Shown here: piece after piece, positions 27,986-49,892 of the stretch
How the letters are laid out: each line of letters begins with the position of its first letter
Position numbering within the stretch: the stretch's first letter is position 1
Origin: Deferrisomatales bacterium
GTDB lineage: Bacteria > Desulfobacterota > Deferrisomatia > Deferrisomatales > JACRMM01
DNA length: 64,000 nt
Assembly: GCA_033551855.1 (NCBI GenBank)
Contig: JAWSUI010000006.1
Location: 11,189 to 75,188 of the forward strand
Direction of reading: 5' to 3'
Made by a program: the position numbers and the translations under genes
The notes under the pieces: model-generated
What the model was told of the DNA's origin: nothing
What the model saw: only the letters and a program-made list of their open reading frames with translations
Databases searched by the model: none

Positions 27986-30900
27986 CTATATGGGGGGGCA
28001 CGGTTCCTCCCGGATCGGCGGCCCGTTCCCCGCTCGCTGCACTTTGGCCAGTTCGTCCGCCGTGGCGCGGACCGTGGCGCGGATCTGTTCCTCGTCGTGA
28101 TGGGCCGTGATGAAAAACCGAAGGCGCGCCGAGCGGTCGGGCACTGCCGGGTGCAGAATCGGTTGGGCGTTGATGCCGCGGTCGAACAAGGCGCGTGACA
28201 GCCGCAAAGCCTTGACCGAGCTTCCCACGATGACGGGGACCACGGGCGTGCCGGCCGCCGAGCCGGTGTTGAGGCCGCGGTGGCGCGCCAGCGTGAGAAA
28301 AAGCGCAGAGAGCTCGCGCAGCCGAGCCACTCGCCACGGTTCGCGCTGGAGCACCGTGAGGGCGGCCAGGGCTGCAGCGGCGCCGGGCGGCGAGAGGCCC
28401 ACGCTGTAGACGAACCCGGGGGCGGTGTACTTGAGGTACTCGACGAGCTCCGCCGAACCCGCGATGTACCCGCCGCAGCTCGCCAGGGATTTGGAGAGCG
28501 TGCCCATCCACAGGTCCACGTCGGACCGGGCCACCCCCCAGTGCTCGCCCAGGCCCCGGCCGGTGGCGCCCATGGTGCCCAGCGAGTGCGCTTCGTCGAC
28601 GAGCAGCAGCGTCTTGTGTTTCTTCCGGAGCTCCGCGAAGCGCGGCAGCTCGGGGAAGTCGCCGTCCATGCTGTACACTCCCTCGATGGCGATCAGCACC
28701 CGGCGATAGCGGTGGCGCACTTCGGACAACAGGCTGTCGAGGGCCTGCCAATCGTTGTGGGCAAAGGCTCGGCGCGCGGCTCCGGAGAGCATGGCACCCT
28801 GGACGATGGAGTTGTGGGCCAGGATGTCGTGGAGGATCAGATCGTCGGGCCCGAACAGGTGGCCGATGGTGGTGACGTTGGTGGCGTGGCCCGAGACGAA
28901 GGCGATGGCGGCCTCGGTGCTCAGGAAGGCGGCCAGGGCCTGCTCCAGATCTCGGTGTACCTGCTTCTCGCCCGCGACCAGCCGACTGGCGCCGGCGCTG
29001 GTGCCGTAGCGGTCGATCGCGGCCTTGGCGGCGGCGGCGACCTCCGGATCGTGGGCCAGCCCGACGTAGTCGTAGATGCTGAAGTTGACGGGCGCCCGCC
29101 CCCCGAGGCCGCGTGGGCTTTGGGGCTTGCCGGGGTCGACGCGGAAGTACGGGTTGTCACCCACCGCGAGCAGCCGGCGCTCCTGGCGCTTCAACTCGCC
29201 AACCTCGGGGAACCAGGCCAGTTCGTAGTGTTCGGGGGGGATCTGGCCGACGGGACGGTCGGCCCTCGGGCCGTCGATTCGTTCCGATTGGACGGCCCGG
29301 ACCAGATCCTCCAGCGTCCGGGCCTCGCTGATCACCGAGTCGGGCAGACGGCAGGCGAAGGTCTCCTCCATCCTGGCCACGAGATCCAGCCGCTGCAGCG
29401 AGTCCAGACCCAGGGCGGCCAGGGGCGTTTCCAGCGTCAGGTCGGGCAACGCCGCGCCGGTCAAGGCGCCGGCGTGCTGGCGGACGGCGGCCAAGGCCGC
29501 TTGCAGAGAGCGGGGTCCGAGATGGGCCGCACAGGCCCCCGCGCCTTGCGCGGCATAACGGATGGCGGCGCTCGGGTCGGCACCCCCGATCGGCCGGCAG
29601 CAGTGCTCGGCCAGGACGTTGAGCTGCCCGTCCCGGAAGGCCGCGCGACACGCGTGGCGCTGGATCTTGCCGCTGGAGGTCCTGGGGATCGTGCCGCTTC
29701 GCACCAGCACCACCGTGTCCAGGGCCAGACCGCATTCCTCGAGCACCGCGCAGCGAAGCGCATCAAGCACGGGCCGGAAATCGTCCTGCCCCCGGCGCGC
29801 GACCTCGTGCACCAGGACCAGGCGCCGGCGGTCGGGGTCGTCTGCGAGGAAAGCGGCCCCGTAACCGGGTTCGAGCAGCGGGTGGCTGCCGCGGGCGATG
29901 GCCTCGATGTCTTGCGGGTAGCGGTTCATCCCACGCACGATGAGCAGGTCGTCCAACCGGCCGGCGACGTAGAGTTGCCCGTCCCGGAGGAAGCCCAGGT
30001 CGCCGGTCTTCAGGAACGGGCCTTCGCCCGTGCCGCTCAGGTGGGCGCCGAAGCTGCGCAGGGTCTGCTCGGGCTTGCCCCAGTAGCCCTGGCCCACCGA
30101 CGCGCCGGCAACCCAGATCTCGCCCATTCGGCCGGGGCCGACTTCCTCGCGGCACTGCGGGTCGACGATCGCCACGCGAAGACCTCCGACGGGCGCGCCG
30201 CAGGCCACCAGCCGCCGAGCTCGCGGCGCATCGCCGGGCAGGGGCTCCACGCGGCTTTCGGTCAAGGCCGTGTCGTCGAAGGTCTCGACCGCGGCGCCGC
30301 TCCCGCGCCTGGGGCCGCTCACCATGAGCGTGGCTTCCGCCAGTCCGTAGCAGGGATAGAAGGCGCTGGGATGGAAGCCGCAGGGGGCGAACGCGGCGGC
30401 GAAGTGTTCGAGCGTGCCGGGGTCGATGGGCTCGGCGCCGGCGAAGGCCAGGCTCCAGGAGGAAAGGTCGAGGGCGGCGCGCTGCTCGTCGGTGATCTTG
30501 CGGACACACAGGTCGTAGGCGAAGTTGGGGCCGCCGGCGATGGTGGCCCGGTACCTGCTGATCGCGGCCAGCCAGGTGATGGGGTTCTGGAGGAACGTGG
30601 CCGGCGAGAGGAAGACGTTGGTGACCCCGGTGAACACCGGTACCAGCACGCCGCCCACCAGGCCCATGTCGTGGTACATGGGCAGCCAGAACGCGCTGCG
30701 GTCCGTGTCCTGTATGTCGAAGGCCTGCTGGATGGCTCGGATGTTGGCCATGAGGTTCGCGTGGCTGAGCATGACGCCCTTGGGCTGGCTGGTGGAGCCC
30801 GAGGTGTACTGGAGCAGGGCCAGGGCGTCGGGGCGGAAGGTCGGCTCCTGCCAGTGCTCGGCCAGGGCATCGGGAATCTCATCGGTGGCGATCCACGAGA

Positions 30901-31357
30901 GCTGGGAGGAGGCAGCGGTCGGGCTGTGCTCTCCCGCCGCGCTCCACGTCTGGAACGTAGCCGCGCCCGAGGCGTTGGTGAGGGCAATGCGGGTCTGGGA
31001 GTCGGCGGCGACGGCCTGGAAGCGTTCGAGCATGCGGTGGCGACGGGGTGGGTATGTCGGCACCGCGACGCAGCCGGCGTACAGGCACCCGAAGAAGGCC
31101 GAGACGAAGTCGAAGCCGGGCGGATAGACCAGGAGCACGCCCTGGCCCGCGCAGCCCCTCTCCTGCAACCGGGCCGCGATGGCCCGGGCTCGCCGGTCGA
31201 GCTGGGCGAACGTCAGCCGGGCCTCATCGGCCTGACCGTCGAGCAGATGGACGCAGGCGGCCTGCTGGGGGCGGTCTTCGGCATGGCGCCGCAGCACGCG
31301 GATGAGATGTCCGCGAAGCGGATCCGGACGGCGGTTGTTTCGGCTACGCACCGGCAT
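27986..31357 (-). CDS. Fatty acyl-AMP ligase - ACP - alpha-oxoamine synthase (PLP; SPT/BioF superfamily) fusion
   Basis: QYTSGSTSQPKGV, CYGLAEATL, KTGDLG; ACP LGLDSL; AOS motifs LAHNS, DEAHS, GTLSKS. Confidence 0.9.
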   Translation of the reverse strand: MPVRSRNNRRPDPLRGHLIRVLRRHAEDRPQQAACVHLLDGQADEARLTFAQLDRRARAIAARLQERGCAGQGVLLVYPPGFDFVSAFFGCLYAGCVAVPTYPPRRHRMLERFQAVAADSQTRIALTNASGAATFQTWSAAGEHSPTAASSQLSWIATDEIPDALAEHWQEPTFRPDALALLQYTSGSTSQPKGVMLSHANLMANIRAIQQAFDIQDTDRSAFWLPMYHDMGLVGGVLVPVFTGVTNVFLSPATFLQNPITWLAAISRYRATIAGGPNFAYDLCVRKITDEQRAALDLSSWSLAFAGAEPIDPGTLEHFAAAFAPCGFHPSAFYPCYGLAEATLMVSGPRRGSGAAVETFDDTALTESRVEPLPGDAPRARRLVACGAPVGGLRVAIVDPQCREEVGPGRMGEIWVAGASVGQGYWGKPEQTLRSFGAHLSGTGEGPFLKTGDLGFLRDGQLYVAGRLDDLLIVRGMNRYPQDIEAIARGSHPLLEPGYGAAFLADDPDRRRLVLVHEVARRGQDDFRPVLDALRCAVLEECGLALDTVVLVRSGTIPRTSSGKIQRHACRAAFRDGQLNVLAEHCCRPIGGADPSAAIRYAAQGAGACAAHLGPRSLQAALAAVRQHAGALTGAALPDLTLETPLAALGLDSLQRLDLVARMEETFACRLPDSVISEARTLEDLVRAVQSERIDGPRADRPVGQIPPEHYELAWFPEVGELKRQERRLLAVGDNPYFRVDPGKPQSPRGLGGRAPVNFSIYDYVGLAHDPEVAAAAKAAIDRYGTSAGASRLVAGEKQVHRDLEQALAAFLSTEAAIAFVSGHATNVTTIGHLFGPDDLILHDILAHNSIVQGAMLSGAARRAFAHNDWQALDSLLSEVRHRYRRVLIAIEGVYSMDGDFPELPRFAELRKKHKTLLLVDEAHSLGTMGATGRGLGEHWGVARSDVDLWMGTLSKSLASCGGYIAGSAELVEYLKYTAPGFVYSVGLSPPGAAAALAALTVLQREPWRVARLRELSALFLTLARHRGLNTGSAAGTPVVPVIVGSSVKALRLSRALFDRGINAQPILHPAVPDRSARLRFFITAHHDEEQIRATVRATADELAKVQRAGNGPPIREEPCPPI

Positions 31358-31585
31358 GGTCAACGGGTTCCCTTGTCATTGTGCCCCGCCCGATGAGCGG
31401 AGGCTCTGGGGCAGGTCGGTTCCCCACGCCGGGGGAGCTCGCGCCGGCCCCCCCTCGGGGCGGCTCGGCATCGATCGGGTGGCCCGCCACTGTTCCCGGG
31501 ACCGCCGGTTCGACGACGGCGCCGCCGGCTCGCTGCATACCGAGAGCATCGTACCGGAACCGAAACTGTCAAGTTTGGCAGGGGC

Positions 31586-31803
31586 CCTCGATCCGCCACC
31601 TGGGTGGCGAGCGGGTTCCGGGAGCCCCTGCGCTGCGCCCCGCAATCCGCGCCAATTGGAGGAGGGGCCCCTCGCGGAACCGGTGCGCCTGGCTTCACCG
31701 GATTCCACGGGCTGTGGCGGATCGGTCGATGCGGCACGGGGCCCCGGTTTGACAGGGCCGGGGCTCCCGGAACCCGCCCCATGATGAGGTGGTGGATTCT
31801 GGG
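31586..31803. mobile_element. Degenerate family A MITE-like element inside the lipid cluster
   Basis: Shares GCCCCGCAATCCGC, GGCTTCACC and terminal GGTGGATTCT with the other copies. Confidence 0.65.
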
Positions 31804-31855
31804 GGCCCCGGAAGGAGGCGCCCGAACCTTCCGAGCCTTCCGAAGCCGCACGGCG

Positions 31856-32704
31856 CTACCCGTGCCACGAGAGGGCCCGCGAGCAATTCATGAGGACCAG
31901 CATCCCTGCCCCCAGCAGGACTCCCGCGATGATGTCGACGCCGTAGTGGAAGGAGCAGTACACGGCCGACGTGGAGAGGAGGACGAGCTGCACCAGGAGG
32001 AGCAGCTTGAGCCGCGGGAAGTGCGTCCCGCCCCAGAGCGCCACCAGCAGCGCGACCGCCACGTGGGAGCTCGGGAAGGCGGCGCCCGGGTTCTCTCCCT
32101 TCTCATAGATGAAATCCACGATCCTTTCGAACAGACCGCTCCCATGAAAAACCAATCCCCTCTCCGCAAGCGGCCCCTCCACGGGGAGAAAGACGTACAC
32201 GGCATAGCAGAGGTAGAAGAGCGCCGAGAGCTGGAAGACGAAGCGCTGGAAGAGCCCCGGGCCCTTGCGAAAGAGCAGGAGCGAGACGAAAACGATCGCG
32301 GGGTAGTAGCTCAAGTAGGCGAAGTGAAAGAGCTCGTCGGCAAAGGGTCCGCGGAGCGCTTGTTGGAGATAGACCGCGGGGAAGGCGCCGAACACGGCGA
32401 CGTCGGCCCGGAGGAAGATGGGGTCCAGGAACTCCGGGACGAGGATACGGTTGAGAAGCCCGGTCTGATAGTAGAGGAAGGTGTACAGCATCAGGGGATG
32501 CCACAGGGAAAGGAGGCGGTAGAACCGCTCCGTCGGCCGGGATCGGCGCATCCAGCCGGACCAGAGGACGATCGCGATCACACCGGCGTTGAACGCGGCG
32601 TGCGCGGGCGCAGCGGCCACTCGCCCCCAGGATGCGAGCACGAAGGCGAGCACGAACAGGTTGTAGCCGACGGTGAGGGCGTCGGTCGCGACGGCTAGAT
32701 CCAC
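31856..32704 (-). CDS. PAP2/Aur1-like integral membrane phosphatase or phosphotransferase
   Basis: Multiple TMs; FLPVEGP, AFPSSH, HYGVD motifs. Confidence 0.85.
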   Translation of the reverse strand: MDLAVATDALTVGYNLFVLAFVLASWGRVAAAPAHAAFNAGVIAIVLWSGWMRRSRPTERFYRLLSLWHPLMLYTFLYYQTGLLNRILVPEFLDPIFLRADVAVFGAFPAVYLQQALRGPFADELFHFAYLSYYPAIVFVSLLLFRKGPGLFQRFVFQLSALFYLCYAVYVFLPVEGPLAERGLVFHGSGLFERIVDFIYEKGENPGAAFPSSHVAVALLVALWGGTHFPRLKLLLLVQLVLLSTSAVYCSFHYGVDIIAGVLLGAGMLVLMNCSRALSWHG

Positions 32705-33675
32705 CCGTTCTCCCGGTACCAGCCGAAGGTGGCCCGAAAGCCGCTCTCCAGGTCGACACGAGGCGCGAAGCCGAGCTCCTCCCGGATCCTCTCGTTCGAG
32801 CAAACCCATCCCTCCTGAAGCGCCTCCCGCGCCTTTTGACTGTTCAGAAGAACCCCCTTTCGGGTGACGGCCGCGGCCAGATCGCCCACGAGCCCGGCGA
32901 GCCGCAGCGCCGCAGCAGGGATGGGCACGACGCGTGCGCGACCCGCGAGGTCCCGCAGAATGGCAACCACCTCGCCGCTCGTATGGCTCTCGCCGTCCGA
33001 AACGAAGTACACCCGACCATCGGAGCGCTCGGAGAAGGCTGCCAGGGTCAGCGCCTCCACCAGGTCGGCGACGTGGAGGAGGGAGAGCTCGAGGGTCCCG
33101 CCCCCGAGCAGCGGCACGAACCCCCGCGCCGCCGCGCGGAAGTAGGCATACACGTCTCGGTCGAAAGGCCCGTAGACCACCGCCGGACGCACGACGGCCC
33201 AGGCCACGGCGCCGCAGTGACGGCGCAGGAGTTCCTCGCCGAGGAGCTTGCTCTCGCCGTAGTGCGTGATGGGTCGCGCCGCCTCCTCCTCCCGGGCAGG
33301 GCGGGCCGCGCGGTGGGGTCCCGCTACCGCCAGGGAGCTCACGTAGACGATCTTCCTCACTCTCGAGCCCCGCGCCGCGGCCACCTCGGCGAGCCTGCCC
33401 GTCCCCTCCCCGTTGGTCTCCAGAAATGCGGCGCGCGTCCTTGCTTTCGTGAGGCCCGCGAGGTGGAATACGAGCTCCGACTTCCCGAGCACGGCGCGGT
33501 AGGAACCGGGGACGAGCAGATCCCCGGCCACGGGGGCGAGCCCGGGCCAATCCGCCATCCACCGCGCCTGCCCCGGCTCCCGGACGAGGCAGGAGACCCG
33601 GTGGCCGAGCTGCGACAGCCGCGAGACCAGGTTCCGGCCGATGAACCCGGCGCCGCCGGTGACGAAGATGTCCAT
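32695..33675 (-). CDS. NAD(P)-dependent extended SDR (epimerase/dehydratase family; candidate 3-keto reductase)
   Basis: TGGAGFIG, VSSLAV, YGESK catalytic YxxxK. Confidence 0.88.
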   Translation of the reverse strand: MDIFVTGGAGFIGRNLVSRLSQLGHRVSCLVREPGQARWMADWPGLAPVAGDLLVPGSYRAVLGKSELVFHLAGLTKARTRAAFLETNGEGTGRLAEVAAARGSRVRKIVYVSSLAVAGPHRAARPAREEEAARPITHYGESKLLGEELLRRHCGAVAWAVVRPAVVYGPFDRDVYAYFRAAARGFVPLLGGGTLELSLLHVADLVEALTLAAFSERSDGRVYFVSDGESHTSGEVVAILRDLAGRARVVPIPAAALRLAGLVGDLAAAVTRKGVLLNSQKAREALQEGWVCSNERIREELGFAPRVDLESGFRATFGWYRENGWI

Positions 33676-33684
33676 GGGTGACGT

Positions 33685-35037
33685 CTAGGTCTTCTCTGCT
33701 TCGTGGAACGCCCTGGAAAAGGGTTGCGGGTTCCGCAGGCCTTTGAAATAACGGCTGCGGGTCGACAGATTGACCCCGGCGTAGGCCTTGCAACCCAGCA
33801 AGGTCCGCCTCCACGGGGTCATGCCCAGGAACCGCTTGGCCATGGCACCCCAGGAATAGGTCTGTTTGTTCAAGTCGATGAATCCGGAAACCAGATCGTC
33901 CACGGTCATGCCCCTCGGACGAAAGAGAACGGTGTCCGGGGGGTATCCGTGGAGCCACCAGTCTTTGGAAAACAATCTGTCTTCCTCCAAGAGACGACGG
34001 TAGAGCCGGGTTCCAGGATAGGGGGTCAGAATTCGAAGCTGGACCACGTCCATGTGCGACTTCATGATGAACTCGAAGGTCCTGTCAAATACATCCTTGT
34101 TCTCGTAGTCGAACCCGAACACGAACGAGCCGAGTATGCCGAAGCCCTCCCCGTGAAATCGGCGCATCGCCTCGTAGAAGTCGATCTTCAAGTTGCGTAT
34201 CTTCCGCACCTCATCCTGGGTCGTCTTCTGTACCGACTCGAAGCCGACCAGGAGTCCCAGGCACCCGGAACGCTTCATCAAGCCGAGCAGTTCGAGATCC
34301 TCGGCCAACGACGCGGTTCCCTGCGCCAGCCACCGCCGCCGCAGCGGGATCATCTCCGTAAAGAGCTCCTTCGCGGCATTCCGGTTCAATCCAAGAGCAT
34401 CGTCCACGAAGAAGAGGTGGGGGGATTCCATGGACTGAATTTCCGCAATCGCCTCTTGTGTCGATCGGAGTCGATACTGGCTTCCCAGGGTCTGCCCGAT
34501 GCAGCAAAACTCGCAGTCATTCGGGCACCCCCTCGATGTTTCGACTCCCACCGGTACGGGAACACCTCCCTGACGTCTTGGCTTTGGCAGTAGGTCCCTC
34601 CGCGGTGTCGGCAGGCTCTGCAAACTGGTCATTTCGCCGGACCGATAGAGCTTCCGCATGCGGCCGGCCGCCGCATCCGCCACGAGATGTGCCCAGACAC
34701 CCTCCGCCTCACCGACGACGACAGCGTCTGCATGCGCCAAGGCCTCATCAGGCAGAACCGTGGGGTGTATGCCTCCCATCACCACCTTCACGCCCTTCGC
34801 GCGATAGTCGTCCCCGATCCGGTAGGCTCTGAGGGCGAGCTCGGTCAGGACGGTGATGCCGACCAAGTCCACCTCTTGATCCATGTCGTCGGGTGAAAAC
34901 GCTTCTTCCACGATCGTTATCGTGTGACCGGGCGGCGTAAGGGCCGCCAGGAGAGGAAGATTCACCCTCTGTAGCTGGAAGGGGCTGGAAATGGCGTCCT
35001 CACGGTGTTCATGTGGGGCGATCAGTTTGATCTTCAA
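33685..35037 (-). CDS. B12-binding domain radical SAM enzyme
   Basis: VMGGIHPT B12-binding region; SRGCPNDCEFC CxxxCxxC; TTG start after GGAGGAG. Confidence 0.9.
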   Translation of the reverse strand: MKIKLIAPHEHREDAISSPFQLQRVNLPLLAALTPPGHTITIVEEAFSPDDMDQEVDLVGITVLTELALRAYRIGDDYRAKGVKVVMGGIHPTVLPDEALAHADAVVVGEAEGVWAHLVADAAAGRMRKLYRSGEMTSLQSLPTPRRDLLPKPRRQGGVPVPVGVETSRGCPNDCEFCCIGQTLGSQYRLRSTQEAIAEIQSMESPHLFFVDDALGLNRNAAKELFTEMIPLRRRWLAQGTASLAEDLELLGLMKRSGCLGLLVGFESVQKTTQDEVRKIRNLKIDFYEAMRRFHGEGFGILGSFVFGFDYENKDVFDRTFEFIMKSHMDVVQLRILTPYPGTRLYRRLLEEDRLFSKDWWLHGYPPDTVLFRPRGMTVDDLVSGFIDLNKQTYSWGAMAKRFLGMTPWRRTLLGCKAYAGVNLSTRSRYFKGLRNPQPFSRAFHEAEKT

Positions 35038-35041
35038 AGAC

Positions 35042-36151
35042 TCACTCCTCCCATCGGGTGGCGATGATGCCCAGGATGAAGATTGCGCCCGCAAAGGCTC
35101 CGATGACCGCGGCGTCACGCAGCGCCGCCATGTTGTCCTCATATACCATCGATGCTCGCAGTCCCTCGTTCACGTAATACAGGGGCAGGAATTTCGCGAG
35201 CGTCGGGAGGAAGCCCGGCATCAGGTCGATGGGGAAGAAGCTCCCCGAGAGGAACATCATGGGAAAACTGATGGCGTTCGCCGCGGCAGCGGCGCTCTGC
35301 GCCTCCTTGACGAAACGGGTGAGGATCATGCCGATCCCGACGAACGCGAAGACGTTGAGCAAGACGAACCCAGGAAGCCAGGCGTTGATCCGCAGGTGGA
35401 CAGGAAACACGGCGTAGCTCACCAGCAGCATCGCCGTCGTGGAGAGGAGGGCGAGGAAGAAGTGGTAGAGGATGTCCGAAAGCAGCCACTCGCTGCGGGT
35501 GATGGGCGTCGTGCAGAGCTTGCGGATGATGCCCTTCTGTCGCAGTTCCGTGTTCAGATACACCGTGCCGAACAGGCTCAGGGTCATCACCGTCATCGCA
35601 ATGATGCCGGGAATGAAGAACTCCATGAACTGGTACTTCTTGGTGAGGATCGACTGCTCCACCGACTGGATGAAAGGCGGAGTCCCGGAGATTTCCAGGT
35701 TTGCTGCGGCCAGCAACCCGTTCAGTATCTTCATCTTCGTGGATACGGAGGGGGAGCCGGGATCGTATATGTAAGTGATCGCGACGGGTGCTTCAAAGTC
35801 TTTACTTTCCATCCTCTGCGTGAGGAGCACTTCGAAACCCTTCGGAATCACGAGGACGAGGTCGATCTTGTGGTCCGTGAGGTACTGCGCCGCGTCGACG
35901 GCCGGGTCGATCGTCGTGGTCTGGAACGTCCCCTTCTTGCCCAGGACCTCGATGGACTCTGCGGACGCCTTCGACTGGTCGAGGTCCTGCACGTAGAGGC
36001 GGAAGCTCACGTCGTCCTGGCCCGCGAAGATGGTGCCGAACACGAGGATCAGGATGATCGGGAACGCCGCCGTGTAGAGCAGGGTGGTCTTCTCGCGGTA
36101 GACGCTCATCAGTTTCACGTAGAGCGTTGCGCCGACGGCGCCCGGGTTCAT
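35042..36151 (-). CDS. ABC-2 type transporter permease
   Basis: N-terminal TM, periplasmic loop, FFIPGIIAM, FLSGSFFPI...LPLYY. Confidence 0.9.
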   Translation of the reverse strand: MNPGAVGATLYVKLMSVYREKTTLLYTAAFPIILILVFGTIFAGQDDVSFRLYVQDLDQSKASAESIEVLGKKGTFQTTTIDPAVDAAQYLTDHKIDLVLVIPKGFEVLLTQRMESKDFEAPVAITYIYDPGSPSVSTKMKILNGLLAAANLEISGTPPFIQSVEQSILTKKYQFMEFFIPGIIAMTVMTLSLFGTVYLNTELRQKGIIRKLCTTPITRSEWLLSDILYHFFLALLSTTAMLLVSYAVFPVHLRINAWLPGFVLLNVFAFVGIGMILTRFVKEAQSAAAAANAISFPMMFLSGSFFPIDLMPGFLPTLAKFLPLYYVNEGLRASMVYEDNMAALRDAAVIGAFAGAIFILGIIATRWEE

Positions 36152-37110
36152 GCCGACCCCTCTTCCCCGACGCGGCGGTTGTGGAGCGTCTCTCCCGTGA
36201 GCTTCAGGAAGACCTCCTCGAGGTTTGGCTTTCGAACGTCCAAGCCAAGATACGACGCGCCGGCACCCTTCAGTGCTGCCAGAATCTGCTGCACGTCTTC
36301 CATGTGTTGGACCCTGACCTTGAGCCTATGGGTGTTGTCTGGAATCGGCTCGAAGCTGAGATCTCGCACGACGGCGCCGGCCCTCTCGTCCGTCGCTTGC
36401 AGGGTGAGGATCAGGTAGTTCGCATTAGCTTCGATGAGCTCCGCTGGAGAGCCCCTGGCAATGATCGTGCCGTTCGAGAGGATCGCCACCGTGTCCGCCA
36501 GGCTCTCCGCTTCCTCCATATAGTGCGTGGTGAGAAATACCGTTTTCCCCTTCTTCTTCAGGCCGAGCAGGACCTCCCACACGTCGCGCCTGGAGCGGGG
36601 GTCGAGCCCCGCGGTCGGCTCGTCGAGAAACACGACCTCGGGATCGTTCACGAGCGCGATGGCGATGCCGAGGCGCTGCTGCAAGCCGCCGGAGAGGTTC
36701 TTGTACTGTTCCTTGCTCTTGTGTCCGAGGTTCACCAGCGCGATCAGCCCGTCCACGTCGCCGTCGCCGCGCCGGAAGAGCCGCGAGTAGTACTGGACGG
36801 TCTCCCGGACCGTGAGCAGGTCGAACGACGTGAACCCCTGGGGGAGGACGCCGATGCGGGGGACGATGTCGTGCTTCCTCGAGACGTCCAGGCCCAGAAC
36901 GCGCACGCTCCCCGACGTGGGCCTGCGGATCGTGTCGAGGATCTCGACGGTCGTGGTCTTTCCTGCGCCATTCGGGCCCAGCAGGGCGAATACCTCGCCC
37001 TTCCTGACGGCGAACGAGACGTCGTTGACCGCTCGCAAGGCGCCGTAACGCTTCGTCAGTCTTTCGACTTCGATGGCGTTTTCCGTTTCTCGCACCCGGA
37101 ACGAGCTCAT
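36148..37110 (-). CDS. ABC transporter ATP-binding protein (ABC-2 exporter)
   Basis: GPNGAGKTT, LSGG, FLDEPTAGLD, TTHYMEE. Confidence 0.95.
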   Translation of the reverse strand: MSSFRVRETENAIEVERLTKRYGALRAVNDVSFAVRKGEVFALLGPNGAGKTTTVEILDTIRRPTSGSVRVLGLDVSRKHDIVPRIGVLPQGFTSFDLLTVRETVQYYSRLFRRGDGDVDGLIALVNLGHKSKEQYKNLSGGLQQRLGIAIALVNDPEVVFLDEPTAGLDPRSRRDVWEVLLGLKKKGKTVFLTTHYMEEAESLADTVAILSNGTIIARGSPAELIEANANYLILTLQATDERAGAVVRDLSFEPIPDNTHRLKVRVQHMEDVQQILAALKGAGASYLGLDVRKPNLEEVFLKLTGETLHNRRVGEEGSA

Positions 37111-38243
37111 TTCGAGGCTGCGTCGGGGGAGACGGGGGGACCGAGCCCGAGGGTTCGGAACATCTTCTCGACGACCGCCGGCTGTTCGAAGAGAAAACGG
37201 TCGAGCCCCGGCCGGCGGTGCTTGAGCAGGAGAAAGCTGGGGACGGGCTTGGCGCCCAGGTGCGCTTTGGTGTTCTGGGCGCCCTGGCCTGCATGGTAGA
37301 GGGGAATCTTGTGCTCTACGCAGTAGCGGATGTTCTCGAGCCAGGACAGGAAGTAGAGGTTGTGCTGCCGGCCGGCCGCATAGTCCATGCAGAAGTACTT
37401 ATCCACAAGCATTTCTTCCCTTGCAACGAGCAGATTGAAGGCGGCAAGCTCTTCCTGTACGAAATAGAGAGCGTACTCGGCCCCCGGAACCCTTTCACAG
37501 ATCTTCTCGAAGAACAGGCGGTTGAGCAGACCCGCTGCCATCGGGACGCGCTCCACCGTTGCCAGATAGAGTCCGTAGATTCTGTCGAGATATGGAGAAA
37601 TATCGCGGTTTCGCGTTACCGTGACCTCGGAAGAGGCGCGCATTTTGCGGCGAAGGTCTTTTCTGGCAGCGCTCGAAAGGAGTCCAAAGTAGTCCTCCAT
37701 GCTGTCGAAAGGAATCGGCAATTTGCCGCCGGGCACCCAGGGTAGTCGGTGGAACCCGCGCAACCCTTCCCCTGAGAGCTCGACCGTATGATTGAAGTTG
37801 TAGAACGTCACGAGGTCGCTCTTTCGTTCAGTGGCGAGCATTTGCAGCGAATCGAGCGCCAGTCTCCATGCCGCTGCGAGGGTTGTTGCATCCAAGGGAC
37901 GGGCAATTCCGATTTCGCTCCATCCCCCTTCCAGCAACCCAACGCCCAACACTCGCGGATGGAAGACCGAGGGAAAGAGTCGGACCGCCCCTCGGAGCGA
38001 CCTGCGCAGCCACCCCCCCGCGAGGGTGGATACATCGAGGCGGCACTCGAACAAGGGCAACAAGAGGATCGGGGCATCCCCCTGGAACACCACGATGCTC
38101 CGCAGGTGAAAACCGGGGACACCCGATTCTTGCAGGAGGGACAGGAGGGGGGCCGTGCTGGAAGGCGGCGGGAAGAGGCGCTCCAGCTCCTGCGCCGACA
38201 CCCCGTCCAACCGGGGCACGCACGTGCACGTGAGGTCGTTCAT
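37107..38243 (-). CDS. GNAT protein, BioF2-like/FemAB-like acetyltransferase type
   Basis: C-terminal 378 aa of ORF 37107..39416; SMEDYFGLLSSAARKDLRRK...NLYFLSW...YHAGQGAQNTKAHLGA. Confidence 0.75.
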   Translation of the reverse strand: MNDLTCTCVPRLDGVSAQELERLFPPPSSTAPLLSLLQESGVPGFHLRSIVVFQGDAPILLLPLFECRLDVSTLAGGWLRRSLRGAVRLFPSVFHPRVLGVGLLEGGWSEIGIARPLDATTLAAAWRLALDSLQMLATERKSDLVTFYNFNHTVELSGEGLRGFHRLPWVPGGKLPIPFDSMEDYFGLLSSAARKDLRRKMRASSEVTVTRNRDISPYLDRIYGLYLATVERVPMAAGLLNRLFFEKICERVPGAEYALYFVQEELAAFNLLVAREEMLVDKYFCMDYAAGRQHNLYFLSWLENIRYCVEHKIPLYHAGQGAQNTKAHLGAKPVPSFLLLKHRRPGLDRFLFEQPAVVEKMFRTLGLGPPVSPDAASK

Positions 38244-44900: not shown

Positions 44901-46797
44901 CCGGCCGGTCCAGGCCCCGGGCCGCGGTGAAGAGGCTCCCCGCCGTCATCTCCTCGGTCTGGGTCCGGAAGGAACGCTCGTCTTGGCGGCCTGCTGCAAA
45001 CTCCCTCTCCAGGGACAAAATGGCAGCGACGCGCGGAGTCCCCAAAGATCGCACCCGAAGCCCGGTGGCCTGGCCCGAGACGACGGTTCCCCCGAGGGGC
45101 GACTCCAGGATCAGTCGCTGATAGAGCGCGGTCAACGCGCCGGTCTCGATCATCTCCCGGCTGGTGAGATAGGCGGTGCCCATCTGGACGGCGTCGGCGC
45201 CGAGCATGGCGGCGATGAAGGCGGTCTCCCGGTTGAAGATCCCTCCTGCGAGGATCACGCGGCAGCCTTGGAACAGGGATGGCTTGCGCCGCTTCAGCTC
45301 CAGCACCATCTGAGCGAGGGTGAGGGTGCTGTGTGGCCCCACGTGGCCGCCCGCCTCGTAGCCCTCGCAGACCACCCACCGGACGCCCGCCTCGAGGGCC
45401 AGCGTCAACAGCGCCTCGTCGGGAGCGATGTACACGACCGCCAGACCGAGCTCGAGCAGCTCCTTGACGGGGGAGAGGTCACCGCCCGCGACCCAGACGA
45501 GACGGGGCCTGTGTTTCTTGATCCAGGCCAGGTGCGTCTCCCGGCAACGGTTCTCTGCCAGGGCGATGACATTCACGGCGTAAGGGCGCCCTTCCATGGC
45601 CTCCTGCAGCCGTCCGAGCCTCCGGTCCAGGGCCTCCTCGTCCATCAGGCCCAGGGCGATGGTGGGCAGTCCACCGGCAGCGGCAACCCTTGCGGCCAGC
45701 TCGGGGACATCGGTGATGGACGCCATGGCGCCCTGGATGAAGGGGTACCTGGTTCCCAGCTCCCTGGCGACGGGGCTGCGCAAGAAACCATCCCTCTTGG
45801 CGTCAGCCAAGCGGCAGCAAGACCGAATCTCTTCGATGAAGGCCCCTACGGCCCCCTCGGTTCCAGACCCGAAACGCTCCACGAACGACGCCGCAAAGGC
45901 AGCCTCCACCGCCAGTGGGATGACCTCGTCCGGGGCGAAACGGCTCTCCAGGGGGTGAACGGCCCTGCCGTGTACCTGACTCGAGAACGACCGCCGGCTT
46001 TCCTCCGTGACCCCTGCCCTGCACAGCGAGCTCTCGAGCGCCCTGAGCTCCTGGAACGCCAAGGAGTTCCCCTTGTTGAACAGGCGCCAGGGCGTTCGCA
46101 GCTCCAGCCCCACCAGCTCCGTGGAGTCCAACCGGAGGTTGGCGAGCTGCCGGCGCTGGTGCGAATCCACCGCAACCAGGTCCGTCAGCCAGTGGACGCT
46201 CTCGAAGACGATTCCGGCAGCCCCCGTGGACAGGAAGGCCGCGGCCGCCTCAGGAGTGGAGACGCCTCCCCACACAAGGATGTCCGGCACGTTCGAGGAG
46301 CTGCCCCGCATCTCCTTGGCCGCGGAATAGAGCGTCAAGGTCGTCTCGGCACCGACCAACCCAGAGGCCTCGCAACCCTTCAGGACGACGCGCTCGATGC
46401 TTGGGTGATCGTTGATGATGTCCGCCAGGAGAGCCGCGTCACCGATAATCGGGAAGCAATGGCGGCTCGCCGACAACTCCTCCCATCTCCGAAAAACGCT
46501 GGAAGGGTCTCCGGCAAACAGGGATGGGTGAAGCTCCACCCAAATGTTCTTGACCCCGGTTCCCTCGAGGGCCTGGTGCAACGATGGGTCAAGAAACGTA
46601 GTGGCAGAAATCTTGACGTCGAGAACCTTGTCGGAGGAGTCCGATGTTCGAAACAAAGAACATAGCGCGTCGACAGCCATCGTAGAGCAGTCAAATACTG
46701 CCCTGCTTCCTGTTCTTCGGGCCATTTCGATCACCTCTTGCGTGATCTCTTTTGGCCTCCAGACGAAACTGATGAAAGAATCAAAGTGCTGGGCCAC
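38992..46797 (-). CDS. Type I polyketide/fatty acid synthase: degenerate ER-like + FabK/PfaD-like ER, KS, AT, ACP, KR, DH; no thioesterase
   Basis: EGYEAGGHVG/GADAVQMGT; KS AACATS, ECHGTST, KSQIGHT; AT GHSLG, AFHS; ACP DLSIRS; KR GGASGIG, YAAAN; DH WLADHRP. Confidence 0.92.
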   Translation of the reverse strand: MAQHFDSFISFVWRPKEITQEVIEMARRTGSRAVFDCSTMAVDALCSLFRTSDSSDKVLDVKISATTFLDPSLHQALEGTGVKNIWVELHPSLFAGDPSSVFRRWEELSASRHCFPIIGDAALLADIINDHPSIERVVLKGCEASGLVGAETTLTLYSAAKEMRGSSSNVPDILVWGGVSTPEAAAAFLSTGAAGIVFESVHWLTDLVAVDSHQRRQLANLRLDSTELVGLELRTPWRLFNKGNSLAFQELRALESSLCRAGVTEESRRSFSSQVHGRAVHPLESRFAPDEVIPLAVEAAFAASFVERFGSGTEGAVGAFIEEIRSCCRLADAKRDGFLRSPVARELGTRYPFIQGAMASITDVPELAARVAAAGGLPTIALGLMDEEALDRRLGRLQEAMEGRPYAVNVIALAENRCRETHLAWIKKHRPRLVWVAGGDLSPVKELLELGLAVVYIAPDEALLTLALEAGVRWVVCEGYEAGGHVGPHSTLTLAQMVLELKRRKPSLFQGCRVILAGGIFNRETAFIAAMLGADAVQMGTAYLTSREMIETGALTALYQRLILESPLGGTVVSGQATGLRVRSLGTPRVAAILSLEREFAAGRQDERSFRTQTEEMTAGSLFTAARGLDRPGGTPLDEEACLERGRFLSGACAGLLREARDLESFHRELAESPLVLHQPFLGSNAGLSEPPPDASRSRGVPSPAVGHWTSQGGGAPTRGDRERVVVTGMSLVNALGKSPEEVWAASLALQSGITPVPPSRWDHERFYDPQPYAPDKTYCKVGAFVDFRVSRNGLGIPPHDFRTMTEATRLTLWLADGAIRASGILESGIPRERIGVLISQNSGEAAGPLTDLHIRAYVHDILADIRKAVPLTPEQLRAIERQVKSGRMAPDDTTLLGRLNCAAGGFVCNRYGFMGPSYSVSAACATSLVALHSAVQMIRNGIIDAAIVGGGEEPLTHLHFLEFSALGALYGLSGRERPPREASRPFDAERDGMVLGEGGGMIVIERESVARARGAPVHVVITGLGASNNHRGMVESSSATQALAMRTSFRDTPYGPDAVDLVECHGTSTRQGDVEEIRALKTFFPSSRRTVISSFKSQIGHTLGASGLNSLIRGVSAMNAGVFPPTLNYEHPDPDIALEGSGLLLPREPLDWKRRDGRPRRLQVNAFGFGGSNYVVQVEEDLDPAGTILVSPGSSPNLTEGTGGRSVLPGVSFLRDQLGGRNFRIGVVAPSEEDALSAIGSPAALAEAAVASPKAARSLARQGIFLGRDDAPALPLALVFPGQGSQYAGMGRDLYESSSVIREWMDRAAAAADFDLLDLLFRDREGDLQETRWQQPALFAVEHALARHLLALGVRPVAMAGHSLGELTALCLAGVYCVEDGFRIVNKRAICMDKAGALHGDPGVMAATDAPLELLQEMLRGRSDVHIGNINAPRQVVLSGKTDAIRALGVELKEGGYRFTLLRVSMAFHSPIMRVIHEELEAYVSSIPFHAPQIPVLSNTTMAPYPSDPTEIRRILMAHLESTVHWMSNVRALWNDYGVRLFVEVGPGDTLSDLITDTLAEPECIQTCLPAAEAPTYRTALARLFARGHLEVPREPRLVSHSAGRQGPTIGPPPGGPGVFEARQHVSPERPAAPPLDVAPAIPEPAAPLPAEAPEAQGLMERLIRIIMDATGYTREEIQPEMDLRRDLSIRSSRLPIIMDAAERLFGITIELEDFIEVRTVQDIADRISEIIGRQGGPGEGPAARAADPGAAPGAVPEPGPEEGDRANGVEDACLKRCVFTLAPVEPAASAPLALSPGDAVVLLSPDREDALARSADELLRKGTGVETVPLPYLPEHGGPGEEGPDLRTAAGVARLSERIAGLASRAGLVITLPRGRPQGLADMAEVARLLAGLFQLVQAFLQPPARKFVVLIHDTREEPDTPGRLLAEGLLGLFLSAAQEQPSTQFRTLEVDRDTDLPPALRAALDRGCPAVELVHREGGLLTSRAQAVPAVFGGAPSLELSPGDVVILSGGASGIGARLARGLAPFAPRLVLLGRTPPGPGPGPRPLESRPGSSSPPSAPEGSHAREIAQTLADLRASGIEATYLTCDVTDPEAVRAALGEVVERFGRIDGIIHGAGVLRDGLLADLTPEELSLVADVKFLGAWNLFTAAAGAGLRFFVGLSSVAAIQGNPGQTNYAAANRMMSALLPYLRAKNPAIHFKALMLPPIEGTGMAEDPEVRHALRRRGVAYIHVQELVALFCRELFVAPAEDVRVLFLRALPAVKAAPLGDFGRPPLRGRLDGGPVALSDRDFPLIDGISRLDLRRGHLEATRTFFDAHDLWLADHRPLKSLAHPLVSAAMMVETFLEAARILYPHLPVRGVRQVRFLDTISCPAGVSRPARISCRRVGAEPGAVVCEVSLSAQELSPTGRLPTRRLDERFTPYCTGQVVLGGGPAELAEWLQDFPVRPEELRTPPVPHGELLQWYERRTGLQGRYRVLEVLDGAGPRTVRGRTVYRETGDFAQLPAACYQYSPYLLEALMQLAGFHGPAMDPQDRRSMLPVGIGEMRFPRLCRPGEPITLEARLRAPAEDSLTWDARGVDAQGHTLMQVRTLRLQRASP

Positions 46798-46896
46798 TAG
46801 GTCACAACTCCAATGAGAAAGCGGTCATTGTCCAGTTGACGACGATGCGCCAGTTGGTTCCGTGCCACCCGATTCGGCGGGCCAACATTACGCGGG

Positions 46897-47742
46897 TCAC
46901 TTCTTCAAAGCAAGATACCATTCGGTCGCATCGCTCCCGATGCCAAGCTCGACAAGGTGGCGCAGGTCCGTTTCCAGAACCTCGGGAGTGCTGTACTCCA
47001 GAATGCGGTATTTCGGATCCGTCCAGACGCGCCGCCTCTGACCCCAGATGCTCACTTCCCGCGGCCCGGTGAGGCGAATGCGGTGGATCAGGTGGATTCC
47101 GGCCAGCGCCGCAACTTCGATCACCATATCGGTGCAGTTGTTGGCCGTCACGCCGAACTGGTCGTACTTCCTTTGCATCACGTATTCATGGATCCGTTGA
47201 TGCCGCCGTCGGGTGATCGGCATGCGCCAGACGAACGTGGGGGGACGATTGGGCCTGCCGGTCTGGAACGTGCCGTCGGACCTCGTCTGCCACAGGTACG
47301 CGATCGCATCGGGATGGCCCTCGCGGGTTCGCTGGAACACACCATCATGGTACCGCGGCCCAACGAGCCCCAGGTCGCCGGTGTGGCCGAACTCCCAGCG
47401 ATTCTCGGGACTCTCCAAGATGAGCCAGCTATGCCCCCAGGGACGCTGCCAGATGGAGAAGAGCAGCGACCGCGTCGTGCTGTAGTCCCAACGGGCAGCT
47501 TCGTTCAGGACATGCAGGAAATACCCCTCGTCTCCGACCGGTGTGTATGTGGCGGGGTCCAGGTCGGCATCGGCGGTGAAACGGCGCACGATTCCGATCG
47601 GCTGGGCACTGTAGCCATCGGGTTGCATCGGAGCGAAGAGCCTGGGGGTTCCGCCGGCACATCGGAGGGCAACCCCCGCCAGCCATCTCATCGCTGCTTG
47701 GACAGGCCCTCGATACCCTTCTTTGCTCGCCGTTTTCGTCAT
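46897..47742 (-). CDS. Hypothetical protein with permuted papain-like His...NC motif pattern
   Basis: WGHSW...ANNCTD; translationally coupled (ATGA) to upstream gene. Confidence 0.65.
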   Translation of the reverse strand: MTKTASKEGYRGPVQAAMRWLAGVALRCAGGTPRLFAPMQPDGYSAQPIGIVRRFTADADLDPATYTPVGDEGYFLHVLNEAARWDYSTTRSLLFSIWQRPWGHSWLILESPENRWEFGHTGDLGLVGPRYHDGVFQRTREGHPDAIAYLWQTRSDGTFQTGRPNRPPTFVWRMPITRRRHQRIHEYVMQRKYDQFGVTANNCTDMVIEVAALAGIHLIHRIRLTGPREVSIWGQRRRVWTDPKYRILEYSTPEVLETDLRHLVELGIGSDATEWYLALKK

Positions 47743-48860
47743 AGGGTTTTTCTGAAGATTCTATACTTCTTGTGTGGTCTTGCACCCGTTTCCTCGATCA
47801 AGGAGTTGATCGACTCGTTGTCCTCCAGGGTCCAGCCCATCTCCAGCTTTTCAAACTTCTTCTTTTCCCTGGCAATTTCATAGATGTGCCGGAAAGCCAA
47901 TATGGGAAACCCCAGTTGACGGTACTTCTCCTTGACCCCAAACATCAGCAACCTCAACCCGTTGATTTCCCGCCGGTAGAGGAGTGCCTTTGCAATGCCC
48001 AGCAGGCCGATCCGGCCGTTGAGGCGTTTGAGCAAGGGGTTGATGTCGGGAAAGATCACGCAGACCGCCGCTGGTTCCTCTTCATGGTGGATGAAGAACA
48101 CGAGATCCGGGTCCGCGAAGGGCTTCACGCTCTTCTGGATGTCCTTCATTTCGCGATCGCTCAAAGGGACAAAACCCCAATTCCCGGACCAGGACTCATT
48201 GTATATTTCCCGGATCAGGCCGAATTCTGCATCCCGATTCTCCGGGTCTACCTGCCGGATACGGACACCCTTCTTGTTGGCGACCTTTTCAGCAAGACGC
48301 TCCATCCAATCCGGCAGCCGGTACTCTCCTTCTATTTTGAAGGCCAACAGATCCTTTTCTTTGGTGAAACCGTAGGATTCGGCCAGCCGTTGGTAATACG
48401 GCGGGTTGTACGCCATCATCACGGCAGGCGGAACTTCGAAACCTTCGATGAGCAAGCCCGCTTCGTAATTCAACGAAGGGCTGAGCGGACCCCTCAGGAA
48501 CGTCATCCCCTTCTGCCGCGCCCAGGTCTCCACGGAAGAGTAGAGGGCCGCCGCGACCTCCGGGTCGTCCGTGCACTCGAAGAAACCCCAGATGGCCATC
48601 TTCTCGTCGTGGCACTCGTTCGAGCGACGGTCGATGATGCCGGCGATCCTTCCCACCGTCTTCGATCCGCGCCGGGCCAGAAAGAGGATGCGCTCGGAAA
48701 ACTCCCAGAAAGGGTGTGCATCGGGGGTCAACAGGCGGCGAACCTCTTTCCTTAGGGGGGGGACCCAATGGGGGAAGTCGGCATAGATCTTCCAAGGAAG
48801 GTCGATGAAGGCCTGCCAGTCCGATCGGGAGTCGACAGGAAGAATCTCTACGCCGGCCAT
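47739..48860 (-). CDS. GNAT N-acyltransferase resembling bacterial ceramide synthase (YghO/bCerS-like)
   Basis: FIDLPWKIY..PHWVPPL...GRIAG...WGFFEC...GLLIEGF...YNPPYY...WSGNWGFVP...WTLEDN. Confidence 0.8.
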   Translation of the reverse strand: MAGVEILPVDSRSDWQAFIDLPWKIYADFPHWVPPLRKEVRRLLTPDAHPFWEFSERILFLARRGSKTVGRIAGIIDRRSNECHDEKMAIWGFFECTDDPEVAAALYSSVETWARQKGMTFLRGPLSPSLNYEAGLLIEGFEVPPAVMMAYNPPYYQRLAESYGFTKEKDLLAFKIEGEYRLPDWMERLAEKVANKKGVRIRQVDPENRDAEFGLIREIYNESWSGNWGFVPLSDREMKDIQKSVKPFADPDLVFFIHHEEEPAAVCVIFPDINPLLKRLNGRIGLLGIAKALLYRREINGLRLLMFGVKEKYRQLGFPILAFRHIYEIAREKKKFEKLEMGWTLEDNESINSLIEETGARPHKKYRIFRKTL

Positions 48861-49570
48861 GGTCGCTTCCCTCGATTTGCGGCAGCCCGGGGGCCCCGCG
48901 TTCGTCCGTGTGCCGTGTAGCTGCCAATCCCTGTAGGGGCGAAGTGCGGTTCTTCCGGAAAGGGCCCCCGTCCGCCTACGTGGTCGGGCCCACCCGATCG
49001 TCCCTGGGCACGAGCACCCAGTCATTTCCGGGATGATCCGAAATTCGTTTCTCTTCCAGACCGCCTGGGTAGTCCCGTTGTAGCGGCCTGGCCGCGACGC
49101 GGGACGAGGCCGGTAGAGTGGGCACGGCCCACCGGTTTCCGGTCGTGGCGGTGGTTGCTGAAATTCTTGAGCGCTGCATGCAGGAACGATACCGCCCAAT
49201 GGTGGTCCGTCAAATTTCGAAACCCGGAAGCCCACCGCCCCGCTGGCCCGTCACATGGTGCAGTTCCGTCACATGTGGCGACCGTGGCCGGGGCGGATTT
49301 CCTTGAAAGGCTTTCCGTTTTCCTTGCATTGGCGGTGCGTTACGTGTGCGGCGCGACTCAGGGCGCTGACGGTCCATCGCTTGCACACTCTCCCTAGCAG
49401 GGCAAGCCGGCGGTGGTGAGCCCTCCACGGGGCGCGCGGGGCGGAGAAAGGGTGGTGACCAGGGGATGGTTCGATGGAGAGCTTCACGATGGAGTGGAAC
49501 CGTGGATATCCGGAGAGGGTGGTTTTCTGGGCGGCTTCCGACGGAACGGCAGACGCGAAGGGAGGACACT

Positions 49571-49750: not shown

Positions 49751-49892
49751 GTGAAGCGCTACTTCTGCAAGTTGCCATTTTGTGTGGGCCGGCATTGCAG
49801 GCAACTGGGGGTGGCGAAGCTGGTAGCAGAGTGAGTTTCCGTGCACGCAGGGCGGAACAAGACAAGAAACCACAGAATTGAGGAATCGAGCC

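Follow-up and report, generated by a model that had tools for sequence, protein, structure and literature searches.

A gene cassette of anaerobes and its possible product, an unusual exported sphingolipid-like lipid

What would an operon make that places a fatty-acid-type megasynthase among relatives of ceramide enzymes? The question is raised by eleven co-oriented, coding-like open reading frames (ORFs) on the minus strand at positions 27986-48860 of a 64,000-nucleotide stretch from a Deferrisomatales bacterium (NCBI GenBank assembly GCA_033551855.1, contig JAWSUI010000006.1, positions 11,189 to 75,188 of the forward strand; this whole stretch is the window, and its own numbering is used below). 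Sphingolipids used to be regarded as rare in bacteria, but according to recent surveys dozens of phyla are likely to make them, and anoxic environments contain ceramides without a known producer or pathway. A preliminary description of the window had listed, in this order, an acyltransferase of the GNAT superfamily (here GNAT1), a papain-like protein (P281), a type I polyketide synthase (PKS), a 4'-phosphopantetheinyl transferase (PPTase), a second GNAT (GNAT2), an ABC ATPase and permease, a B12-binding radical SAM enzyme, an extended short-chain dehydrogenase/reductase (SDR), a PAP2-type membrane enzyme and a FAAL-ACP-AOS fusion (AOS, alpha-oxoamine synthase), and ORFs, domains and start-codon analysis bear out both the order and the common orientation. 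Homology and gene context support the view that these genes form a self-contained pathway for an exported ceramide-like amide (sphingoid) lipid, which we hold to be probable though far from certain. The operon would then be a compact, apparently complete example in which a private fatty-acid-type megasynthase is combined with paralogues of ceramide enzymes and with export and remodelling proteins.

We favour a sphingolipid because the FAAL, AOS, SDR and GNAT1 of the operon all match genes of a validated locus, that of Escherichia coli BL21(DE3), where yghO is followed by a divergent FAAL(AasR)-epimerase-ACP-spt set. The available extracts of PMC9386255 identify the members of that set as AasR, 'epi', AcpR and an active SPT, equate the BL21 genes one by one with Caulobacter CC_1154, 1165, 1164, 1163 and 1162, and list yghO (ECD_02850) with CC_1154 as 'aca', the acyl-CoA N-acyltransferase needed for dihydroceramide; CC_1154 is the gene later called bCerS, according to extracts of PMC11087976. 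Every component of this Caulobacter/E. coli B ceramide pathway (Spt, AcpR, AasR, CerR/'epi' and bCerS/'aca'/YghO) has a counterpart in the window. The window differs in that its AasR-, AcpR- and AOS-like parts are fused, its AOS belongs to a separate clade and its GNAT1 to a subclade of its own, and in that it adds a megasynthase, a PPTase, a FemAB-like GNAT, a papain-like protein, an ABC exporter, a radical SAM enzyme and a PAP2_3 protein.

GNAT1 (48860-47739, 373 aa), the first gene, is 33% identical to E. coli YghO end to end (383 aa; E 3e-71 to 4e-71). Its earlier labelling as a bCerS/YghO-like GNAT therefore holds on the strength of this full-length match, and the protein belongs to the bCerS (CC_1154/YghO) family of N-acyltransferases as a distinct, PKS-linked subclade; the family libraries are silent, with no Pfam or NCBIfam match, and a PDB sequence search gave nothing useful. 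We found 2492 homologues at E<=1e-3, the best 120 of which (73-97% identity) are labelled Deferrisomatales, Thermodesulfobacteriota, Geobacteraceae and others. A tree of the family places the PKS-linked GNAT1 proteins together in a tight clade (support 100/100), with paralogues linked to Spt genes as its sister group (95/94) and E. coli YghO outside. GNAT1 is the single YghO-family gene in its genome, estimated to be 100% complete, and has no detectable relationship to GNAT2 (BLASTP E 0.98).

The extended SDR (33675-32695; Pfam Epimerase, E 1e-31) is a candidate CerR/'epi'-like 3-keto reductase. Its best match on the whole BL21 chromosome is the spt-locus epimerase, with 92.7 bits against 66.5 for the next protein (BLASTP E 3e-32), and by this comparison with the E. 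coli enzyme it falls among the CerR-type NAD-dependent reductases of epimerase fold; no signal peptide is visible, and the N-terminus opens directly with the Rossmann motif. The following gene (32704, or 32809, to 31856) encodes a membrane phosphotransferase of the PAP2_3 family (PF14378, 75.3 bits against a cut-off of 27, E 7e-21; PAP2, E 1e-7), a family of Aur1/IPC-synthase-type phosphotransferases; the protein is a candidate Aur1/sphingomyelin-synthase-like head-group enzyme. It did not reach E<=1e-3 on the model for Bacteroides phosphoinositol dihydroceramide synthase, NF052609; its PAP2 counterparts in related loci (see below) match PAP2_C, and one of these, in L070, matches NF052609 weakly (33.7 bits, cut-off 480).

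The last gene (31363/31357-27986) encodes the 1125-aa fusion, with the Pfam domains AMP-binding, PP-binding and Aminotran_1_2. Its FAAL domain is 36% identical to E. coli AasR (E 2e-82), its AOS domain is 34% identical to E. coli Spt (E 7e-55) with the catalytic residues (His, Asp-x-x-His, Lys and Arg) conserved, and the two domains flank a PP-binding domain (E 5.6e-13); a dedicated acyl-ACP synthetase and an ACP to feed the AOS are thus both present, fused to it. The fused AOS is the only one found in its own genome. The fusion is common in metagenomes, with 4482 fused-length matches; nearly all of the best 120 have the same four Pfam domains, with AOS parts 78-98% identical, and relatives, where named, are automatically annotated as 8-amino-7-oxononanoate synthase or as a class I/II aminotransferase-fold pyridoxal-phosphate enzyme. 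A direct PKS-AOS fusion related to the fused-AOS clade is the 1778-aa Corallococcus protein P0341, in which ketosynthase-type domains are joined to an AOS with 49% identity to the AOS domain of the window. With GNAT1, SDR and AOS each related to its BL21 counterpart, the preliminary description was right, at the level of homology, that analogues of all three ceramide steps are encoded.

These homologies suggest how the core of the pathway would run. The FAAL domain would adenylate a free fatty acid and load it onto its own ACP, a task that in Caulobacter and E. coli B falls to two separate proteins, AasR and AcpR. From the acyl-ACP and a small amino acid, the pyridoxal-phosphate-dependent AOS would form a 2-amino-3-keto long-chain base, whose amine GNAT1 would N-acylate; the extended SDR would reduce the 3-keto group and the PAP2_3 enzyme add a phospho head group. 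For the FAAL, AOS, GNAT1, SDR and PAP2_3 proteins the assigned step is based on homology; the remaining steps, taken up with the respective proteins below, we infer.

Are these genes together by chance? Other genomes carry them in the same order, which argues that the arrangement is not fortuitous. Searching with GNAT2, we retrieved 58 related loci from metagenome-assembled genomes (MAGs) with nine phylum labels (Thermodesulfobacteriota, Nitrospirota, Verrucomicrobiota, Planctomycetota, Acidobacteriota, Methylomirabilota, Binatia, Chloroflexota and Bacteroidota), in which the order GNAT1-P281-PKS-PPTase-GNAT2-ABC-ABC-(EptA-like)-radical SAM recurs at 55-90% identity; synteny elsewhere, on which the earlier proposal had been made to depend, is thereby confirmed for this core. 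Many of these loci end at contig edges, so the following per-gene counts are lower bounds. GNAT2 is present in all 58 (58-85% identity), the ABC ATPase gene in 57 (68-89% identity; directly next to GNAT2 in 57/58), the permease in 50, the PPTase (at least 40% identity) in 47, the PKS in 45, the radical SAM enzyme in 35 (69-88% identity), P281 in 32 and GNAT1 (at least 60% identity) in 20. Besides a core without the fusion (layout A), we found three loci in which discrete ketosynthase, ketoreductase, ACP and FabA-type genes take the place of the megasynthase and GNAT2, P281 and the fusion are kept (layout B), and Verrucomicrobiota loci with the fusion at the head (layout C). The fusion adjoins SDR and PAP2 genes, as in the window, in the close relative L001 only (~89% DNA identity).

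Within the phylum of the window the cassette is rare: GNAT2 matches at E<=1e-30 occurred in 3 of 401 sampled genomes, including the window's own, the other two being a close copy at 63% identity and a protein at 32%, and in none of three genomes of the same family or ten of the same order. A cassette so rare here, with 55-90% identity between phyla, has probably spread horizontally and been kept under strong purifying selection.

Two kinds of gene outside the operon accompany the cassette elsewhere. A 592-aa EptA-like gene of the phosphoethanolamine-transferase family (Sulfatase) is found in 23/58 loci (for example L005:13340-15118), in many of them between the permease and radical SAM genes, and is absent from the window, where these two are 4 nt apart. 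Genes for an IorA/IorB-like 2-oxoacid:ferredoxin oxidoreductase adjoin the cassette in 5/58 loci (L005:18774-21090; L013:812-2923) and could supply branched or aryl starter acyl-CoAs.

What does the core have beside it where the fusion is missing? Directly upstream of GNAT1, two genomes (G003 and G005) encode an extended SDR, a stand-alone AOS, a second YghO-family GNAT (36-40% identical to GNAT1) and a PAP2_3/PAP2_C protein, and a third (G004) has the same SDR/AOS/PAP2_3 set with the second GNAT missing. The stand-alone AOS proteins beside the core score 556-597 bits on the SPT model NF047600 (cut-off 640), with the next model at 415-440, and group with E. coli Spt (support 100/98). Of 15 core-bearing genomes searched, eight encode an Spt-like protein no more than ~11 kb from the locus and three encode one elsewhere. 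Across the 58 loci the fusion occurs in six, an Spt-like gene in six and both in none. From these comparisons, the window carries a variant of a widespread cassette in which the fusion stands in for the canonical stand-alone Spt.

Several observations weigh against a sphingolipid product. The AOS of the fusion lies outside the Spt clade: it scores 195-294 bits on SPT models with cut-offs of 500-670, and in a 24-sequence AOS tree the fused AOS proteins form a clade of their own (100/100) on a long branch, which joins the Spt clade weakly (84/94, branch length 0.027). The top NCBIfam matches of the fusion as a whole are FAAL models, and the best for its AOS part is bioF (346 bits), followed by SPT-CFB (294) and Kbl (286), all under cut-off; among E. 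coli proteins the AOS domain scores highest with Kbl (196.8 bits), then Spt (185.9) and BioF (165.6). The SDR is just 29% identical to the E. coli epimerase. Three of the 15 core-bearing genomes (G406, G411 and G414) have no AOS at E<=1e-40, and in a further one (G412) the nearby AOS is just 35% identical, so the core may work without an AOS. Our references are the E. coli B orthologues, tied to Caulobacter bCerS and CerR through one paper, and a direct passage of the acyl chain from the synthase ACP to GNAT1, proposed below, is conjecture. In short, GNAT1 falls within the YghO/bCerS family, the SDR has the spt-locus epimerase as its best match, and the fused AOS is not a member of the Spt clade.

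The three genomes without an AOS are long-read MAGs with fragmented ORFs at the locus. In L003, L021, L027 and other long-read MAG loci the EptA-like, permease and radical SAM genes are split into two or three ORFs, probably by assembly indels, and calls of gene absence are weaker in such loci for that reason.

The same observations could speak for a different exported lipid of the amide or amino type, or for a small lipid that serves as a signal. The two GNATs might, for example, turn the PKS chain into an N-acyl amino acid or an aminoacyl lipid, with the AOS making an amino-ketone of another class by CqsA-, BioF- or Kbl-like chemistry. The fused AOS stands at equal distance from BioF, Kbl and Spt, 3/15 core-bearing genomes showed no AOS as described, and aminoacyl-tRNA is used by some proteins of the Fem/ATE-type clan, to which GNAT2 belongs. 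We nevertheless regard a product of this kind as improbable: the operon has a counterpart for each of the five components of the E. coli/Caulobacter ceramide route, the core is adjoined in several phyla by genes of the true Spt clade together with CerR-like and bCerS-like partners, and the PAP2_3 head-group enzyme recurs among the loci. A BioF/BioWF-like role of the fusion in biotin synthesis was rejected as well, given the lipid gene context and a genome without BioA above cut-off (best 278 against 405 bits). Since there is neither such a BioA nor any AOS besides the fusion, the organism may lack the usual biotin route.

If a ceramide-like lipid is the product, what does the megasynthase contribute? 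The 2601-aa type I synthase (46797-38992) has the Pfam domains NMO (residues 348-595), KS (723-1131), AT (1280-1568), PP-binding (1662-1729), KR (2009-2196) and PS-DH (2471-2600). It thus reads as an iterative, fully reducing enzyme with a weakly FabK-like region followed by an NMO/FabK-type enoylreductase (ER), ketosynthase (KS), acyltransferase (AT), ACP, ketoreductase (KR) and dehydratase (DH), and with no thioesterase; Pfam detects none elsewhere in the operon. By sequence reading, the KS Cys/His/His, the AT motifs GHSLG and MAFHS, the KR motif YAAAN and the DH His in HRPLKSLAHP are intact. The first 349 residues (45750-46797) resemble FabK (2z6i) at E 0.012, and this weak FabK/PfaD likeness ahead of the ER suggests a tandem, possibly degenerate second ER-like barrel. 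The PPTase (38995-38240; Pfam ACPS, E 7e-11) overlaps the PKS stop and the GNAT2 start by 4 nt each. Primed by this PPTase, the synthase would iteratively build a saturated, probably very long acyl chain; acyl-chain supply as its role is indicated by the three loci in which discrete KS, KR, ACP and DH genes replace it. GNAT1 might then take the chain straight from the synthase ACP, a step that fits the lack of a thioesterase and the occurrence of the GNAT1 subclade only where the megasynthase occurs.

Among known enzymes, the synthases of polyunsaturated fatty acid (PUFA)-synthase-like 'secondary lipid' systems (PfaA, HglE) likewise have the KS-AT-ACP-KR-DH order and a FabK/PfaD-type ER, and make chains of at least C20, as stated in the available part of PMC3098273. 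The window synthase differs from the PfaA type in its single ACP, its N-terminally fused ER and the lack of a PfaC-type KS-CLF-DH2 or a PfaB gene. It scores best on NCBIfam with PKS_plus_SDR (552 bits) and PfaA (421 bits), both under cut-off, and is not a PfaA subunit by TIGR02813 (cut-off 1010): it has one PP-binding domain and a fused ER, and the operon has no KS-CLF or FabA-type DH genes. The pfa-like cluster types of Shulse & Allen 2011, as described in the accessible part of that paper (PMC3098273), include Type I, with a pfaBC fusion, and Type J, with separate ER and KS-MAT-ACP3-KR genes, and none described there has the architecture of the window; the Geobacter 'Type I' cluster was considered as a match and rejected, as it carries the pfaBC fusion.

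An alternative fate of the PKS chain has a precedent. SgaAB(C) of Pseudomonas fluorescens MYb115 makes PKS-derived sphingolipids (PMC12134224, 2025, in extract, as for the further statements on Sga), and in SgaAB, the only characterised bacterial PKS-sphingolipid system, the chain enters via the AOS. The chain made in the window could in the same way become the long-chain base, being released, reactivated by the FAAL, transferred to the ACP of the fusion and condensed by the AOS into a very long sphingoid base, with GNAT1 adding an ordinary acyl-CoA. This would agree with the presence of FAAL-ACP-AOS and PKS in one operon in the window, L001 and L028. We consider it fairly unlikely, since no thioesterase is encoded to free the chain for the FAAL, in most PKS-bearing loci a stand-alone Spt has neither a FAAL nor an ACP partner close by, and it is the megasynthase that the GNAT1 subclade follows, the fusion occurring also with discrete fatty-acid-synthase-like genes; supply of the N-acyl chain through GNAT1 remains our preferred role for the synthase. 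PKS-derived bacterial sphingolipids as an idea are thus already published, with a different architecture. In SgaABC, as in the window, an iterative type I PKS is dedicated to the pathway and works with an AOS and a reductase towards sphingoid lipids, in SgaABC including forms with a phospho head group; compared by description only, SgaAB is a two-gene cluster of PKS and stand-alone SPT with a classical KDSR-type SDR nearby, and the extract makes no mention of a bCerS-type GNAT, a FemAB-like GNAT, a papain-like protein, an ABC exporter or a radical SAM enzyme. Full-text literature searches for the gene combination returned no description of the cassette, in keeping with the earlier statement that the combination was not recognised from any described cluster.

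Which proteins would modify and export the lipid? GNAT2 (38243-37107) is a FemAB_like/Acetyltransf_6 ('BioF2-type') double-GNAT transferase, with 30.7 bits on PF04339 (cut-off 27); its orthologues match PF04339 in 10/10, PF13480 in 8/10 and ATE_C in 4/10 cases, neighbours in the Atlas carry the same families, and a PDB sequence search gave nothing useful. It may add a further acyl or aminoacyl group. The next two genes encode a DrrA/NodI-like ABC transporter ATPase (37110-36148; Pfam ABC_tran, E 1.7e-29; NCBIfam drrA subfamily, 257 bits, under cut-off) and an ABC-2 type permease (36151-35042; ABC2_membrane_3, E 1.3e-35), a transporter that would move the lipid out of the inner membrane. A possible analogy is MprF, which couples aminoacyl-tRNA-dependent lipid aminoacylation to a flippase; the likeness would lie in a Fem-type double-GNAT gene directly before lipid-export genes, as in 57/58 loci. 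A transporter beside sphingolipid genes has a precedent, since the BL21 spt locus (L075, 2989282-2997066) is followed by paralogous permease genes annotated as lptG/lptF. In E. coli K-12 MG1655 (L073), IS5 lies beside yghO where BL21 has the FAAL-epimerase-ACP-spt genes.

The pairing of PKS and AOS with an ABC-2 type transporter might instead indicate a lipid anchor for a capsule or other surface polysaccharide, as proposed for RkpA/RkpG and WcbR/WcbT, with the transporter as polysaccharide exporter; the extract of PMC12134224 adds that SgaAB homologues are most frequent in Burkholderia. As no glycosyltransferase, sugar-nucleotide or polymerase gene is present in the operon, its flanks or the annotated related loci, we find this explanation very hard to credit and retain that of an exported ceramide-like lipid.

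The radical SAM enzyme (35037-33685; Pfam B12-binding, Radical_SAM and DUF4070) belongs to the class B (B12-binding) radical SAM enzymes by PF02310 (E 1.7e-9) and PF04055 (E 6e-12), and would tailor the chain. It reaches no equivalog, scoring 100 bits on HpnJ (cut-off 578), 80 on BchE (481) and 67.5 on a ladderane-type lipid radical SAM model (360); the closest solved structure is AprD4 (6fd2, E 4.8e-11). Its start is a TTG at 35037 behind GGAGG, with an alternative ATG at 35142.

P281 (47742-46897, 281 aa), a Cys/His protein, was assigned through its predicted structure, having no Pfam or NCBIfam match and nothing useful in a PDB sequence search. Its family is small, with 254 clusters at 50% identity in a profile search of 1.84 billion representatives, and in an alignment of 102 diverse relatives H104, W106, G119 and C203 are invariant; five of the 102 match PF05903 (PPPDE) weakly. 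With this alignment the AlphaFold2 (AF2) model reached pLDDT 94 (54 with 12 close orthologues). Foldseek with the good model returned nothing at E<=1e-3. VIA-align matched the model to TseH (6v98, Z 10.9, root-mean-square deviation 4.0, 141 residues aligned), YiiX (2if6, Z 7.9), a YiiX-like peptidase (3kw0, 7.2), the PPPDE deSUMOylase 2wp7 (6.9), the MARTX RID acyltransferase (5.3), Aichivirus 2A (5.2), CLN5 (4.6) and PLAAT4 (4.6), all of them permuted papain-like Cys-His enzymes, several of which act on lipids, lipid acyltransferases included. Together with the invariant H104 and C203, these fold matches substantiate the original 'papain-like' label, and the model places P281 in the permuted papain-like NlpC/P60 superfamily, in which His precedes Cys. 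It shares fold (Z 10.9 to 4.6) and residue order with the LRAT/PLAAT/YiiX/TseH/PPPDE group, and differs from it in having no Pfam membership and forming a small separate family. An N-terminal hydrophobic helix and an invariant lipobox-like Cys28, which lies in a canonical lipobox in 8/12 orthologues as read from the alignment, are features of a protein that, anchored in the membrane, might remodel the lipid in the envelope.

Could the product account for ceramides already seen in nature? The accessible part of a Black Sea study (PMC11334938) describes Spt/bCerS/CerR homologues in 38 phyla and, in anoxic waters, 1-deoxyceramides with C32-C39 N-acyl chains and amino-acid-bearing 'Lys-Cers' (lysine-ceramides), both known from no cultured organism. 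A more specific version of our proposal, which we think distinctly unlikely as a whole, is that the cassette is the missing route to these very-long-N-acyl ceramides: the synthase would build a >C30 chain that GNAT1 takes directly from the synthase ACP, the base would be head-less because the divergent fused AOS takes alanine, or some other amino acid than serine, and GNAT2 and the ABC-2 transporter would act, by the analogy with MprF, as a 'modify and flip' pair that aminoacylates the lipid. If the general proposal is true, the operon provides genes through which envelope sphingolipids of anaerobes, very long in chain or unusual in other ways, can be tested, and new enzyme families with it: the AasR-AcpR-AOS fusion, the PKS-linked bCerS subclade, the permuted papain-like lipid enzyme and a B12 radical SAM subfamily.

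Is the cluster one transcription unit? Eight of its ten junctions are tight, with five overlaps of 4 nt, gaps of 4 and 9 nt and one overlap of ~10 nt, and for these the earlier statement that most genes overlap or lie less than 10 nt apart is accurate; it does not hold for two spacers, of 99 nt between P281 and the PKS (171 nt if the PKS starts at ATG 46725) and of 492 nt between the PAP2_3 and fusion genes. A search of these two long spacers found no terminator-like site, and an Rfam scan of 26000-51000 at E<=0.1 no RNA family. The 492-nt spacer (31364-31855) contains no coding-like ORF, Rfam match or promoter-like site, and the relative L001, at 89% identity, lacks a counterpart to ~258 nt of this spacer (31591-31847). 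Pfam and NCBIfam together assign nine of the eleven operon proteins, the exceptions being those of the first two genes. Upstream of GNAT1 by ~330 nt, a single sigma-70-like promoter match on the minus strand (49186-49213; 9/12 positions, 0.3 expected in shuffles) gives a weak indication of a start site. On this side the operon is flanked by a divergent BON-domain gene that starts at 49827, and on the other by a convergent PAS/sigma-54 activator gene (26063-27982, plus strand), whose stop is 3 nt from that of the AOS and which is also present in L001 (86% identity). The sigma-54 motif is not above chance (24 matches, 21.6 expected), and none lies upstream of GNAT1; with no enriched sigma-54 promoter motif the activator cannot be tied to the operon. 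Lastly, G+C content in the window is ~70% overall and dips from ~0.70 to 0.57-0.62 at 34000-38000, over the radical SAM and ABC genes, and at 46000-52000, over the GNAT1 and P281 genes and the spacer upstream, a mosaicism that is consistent with foreign origin or with strong protein constraint.

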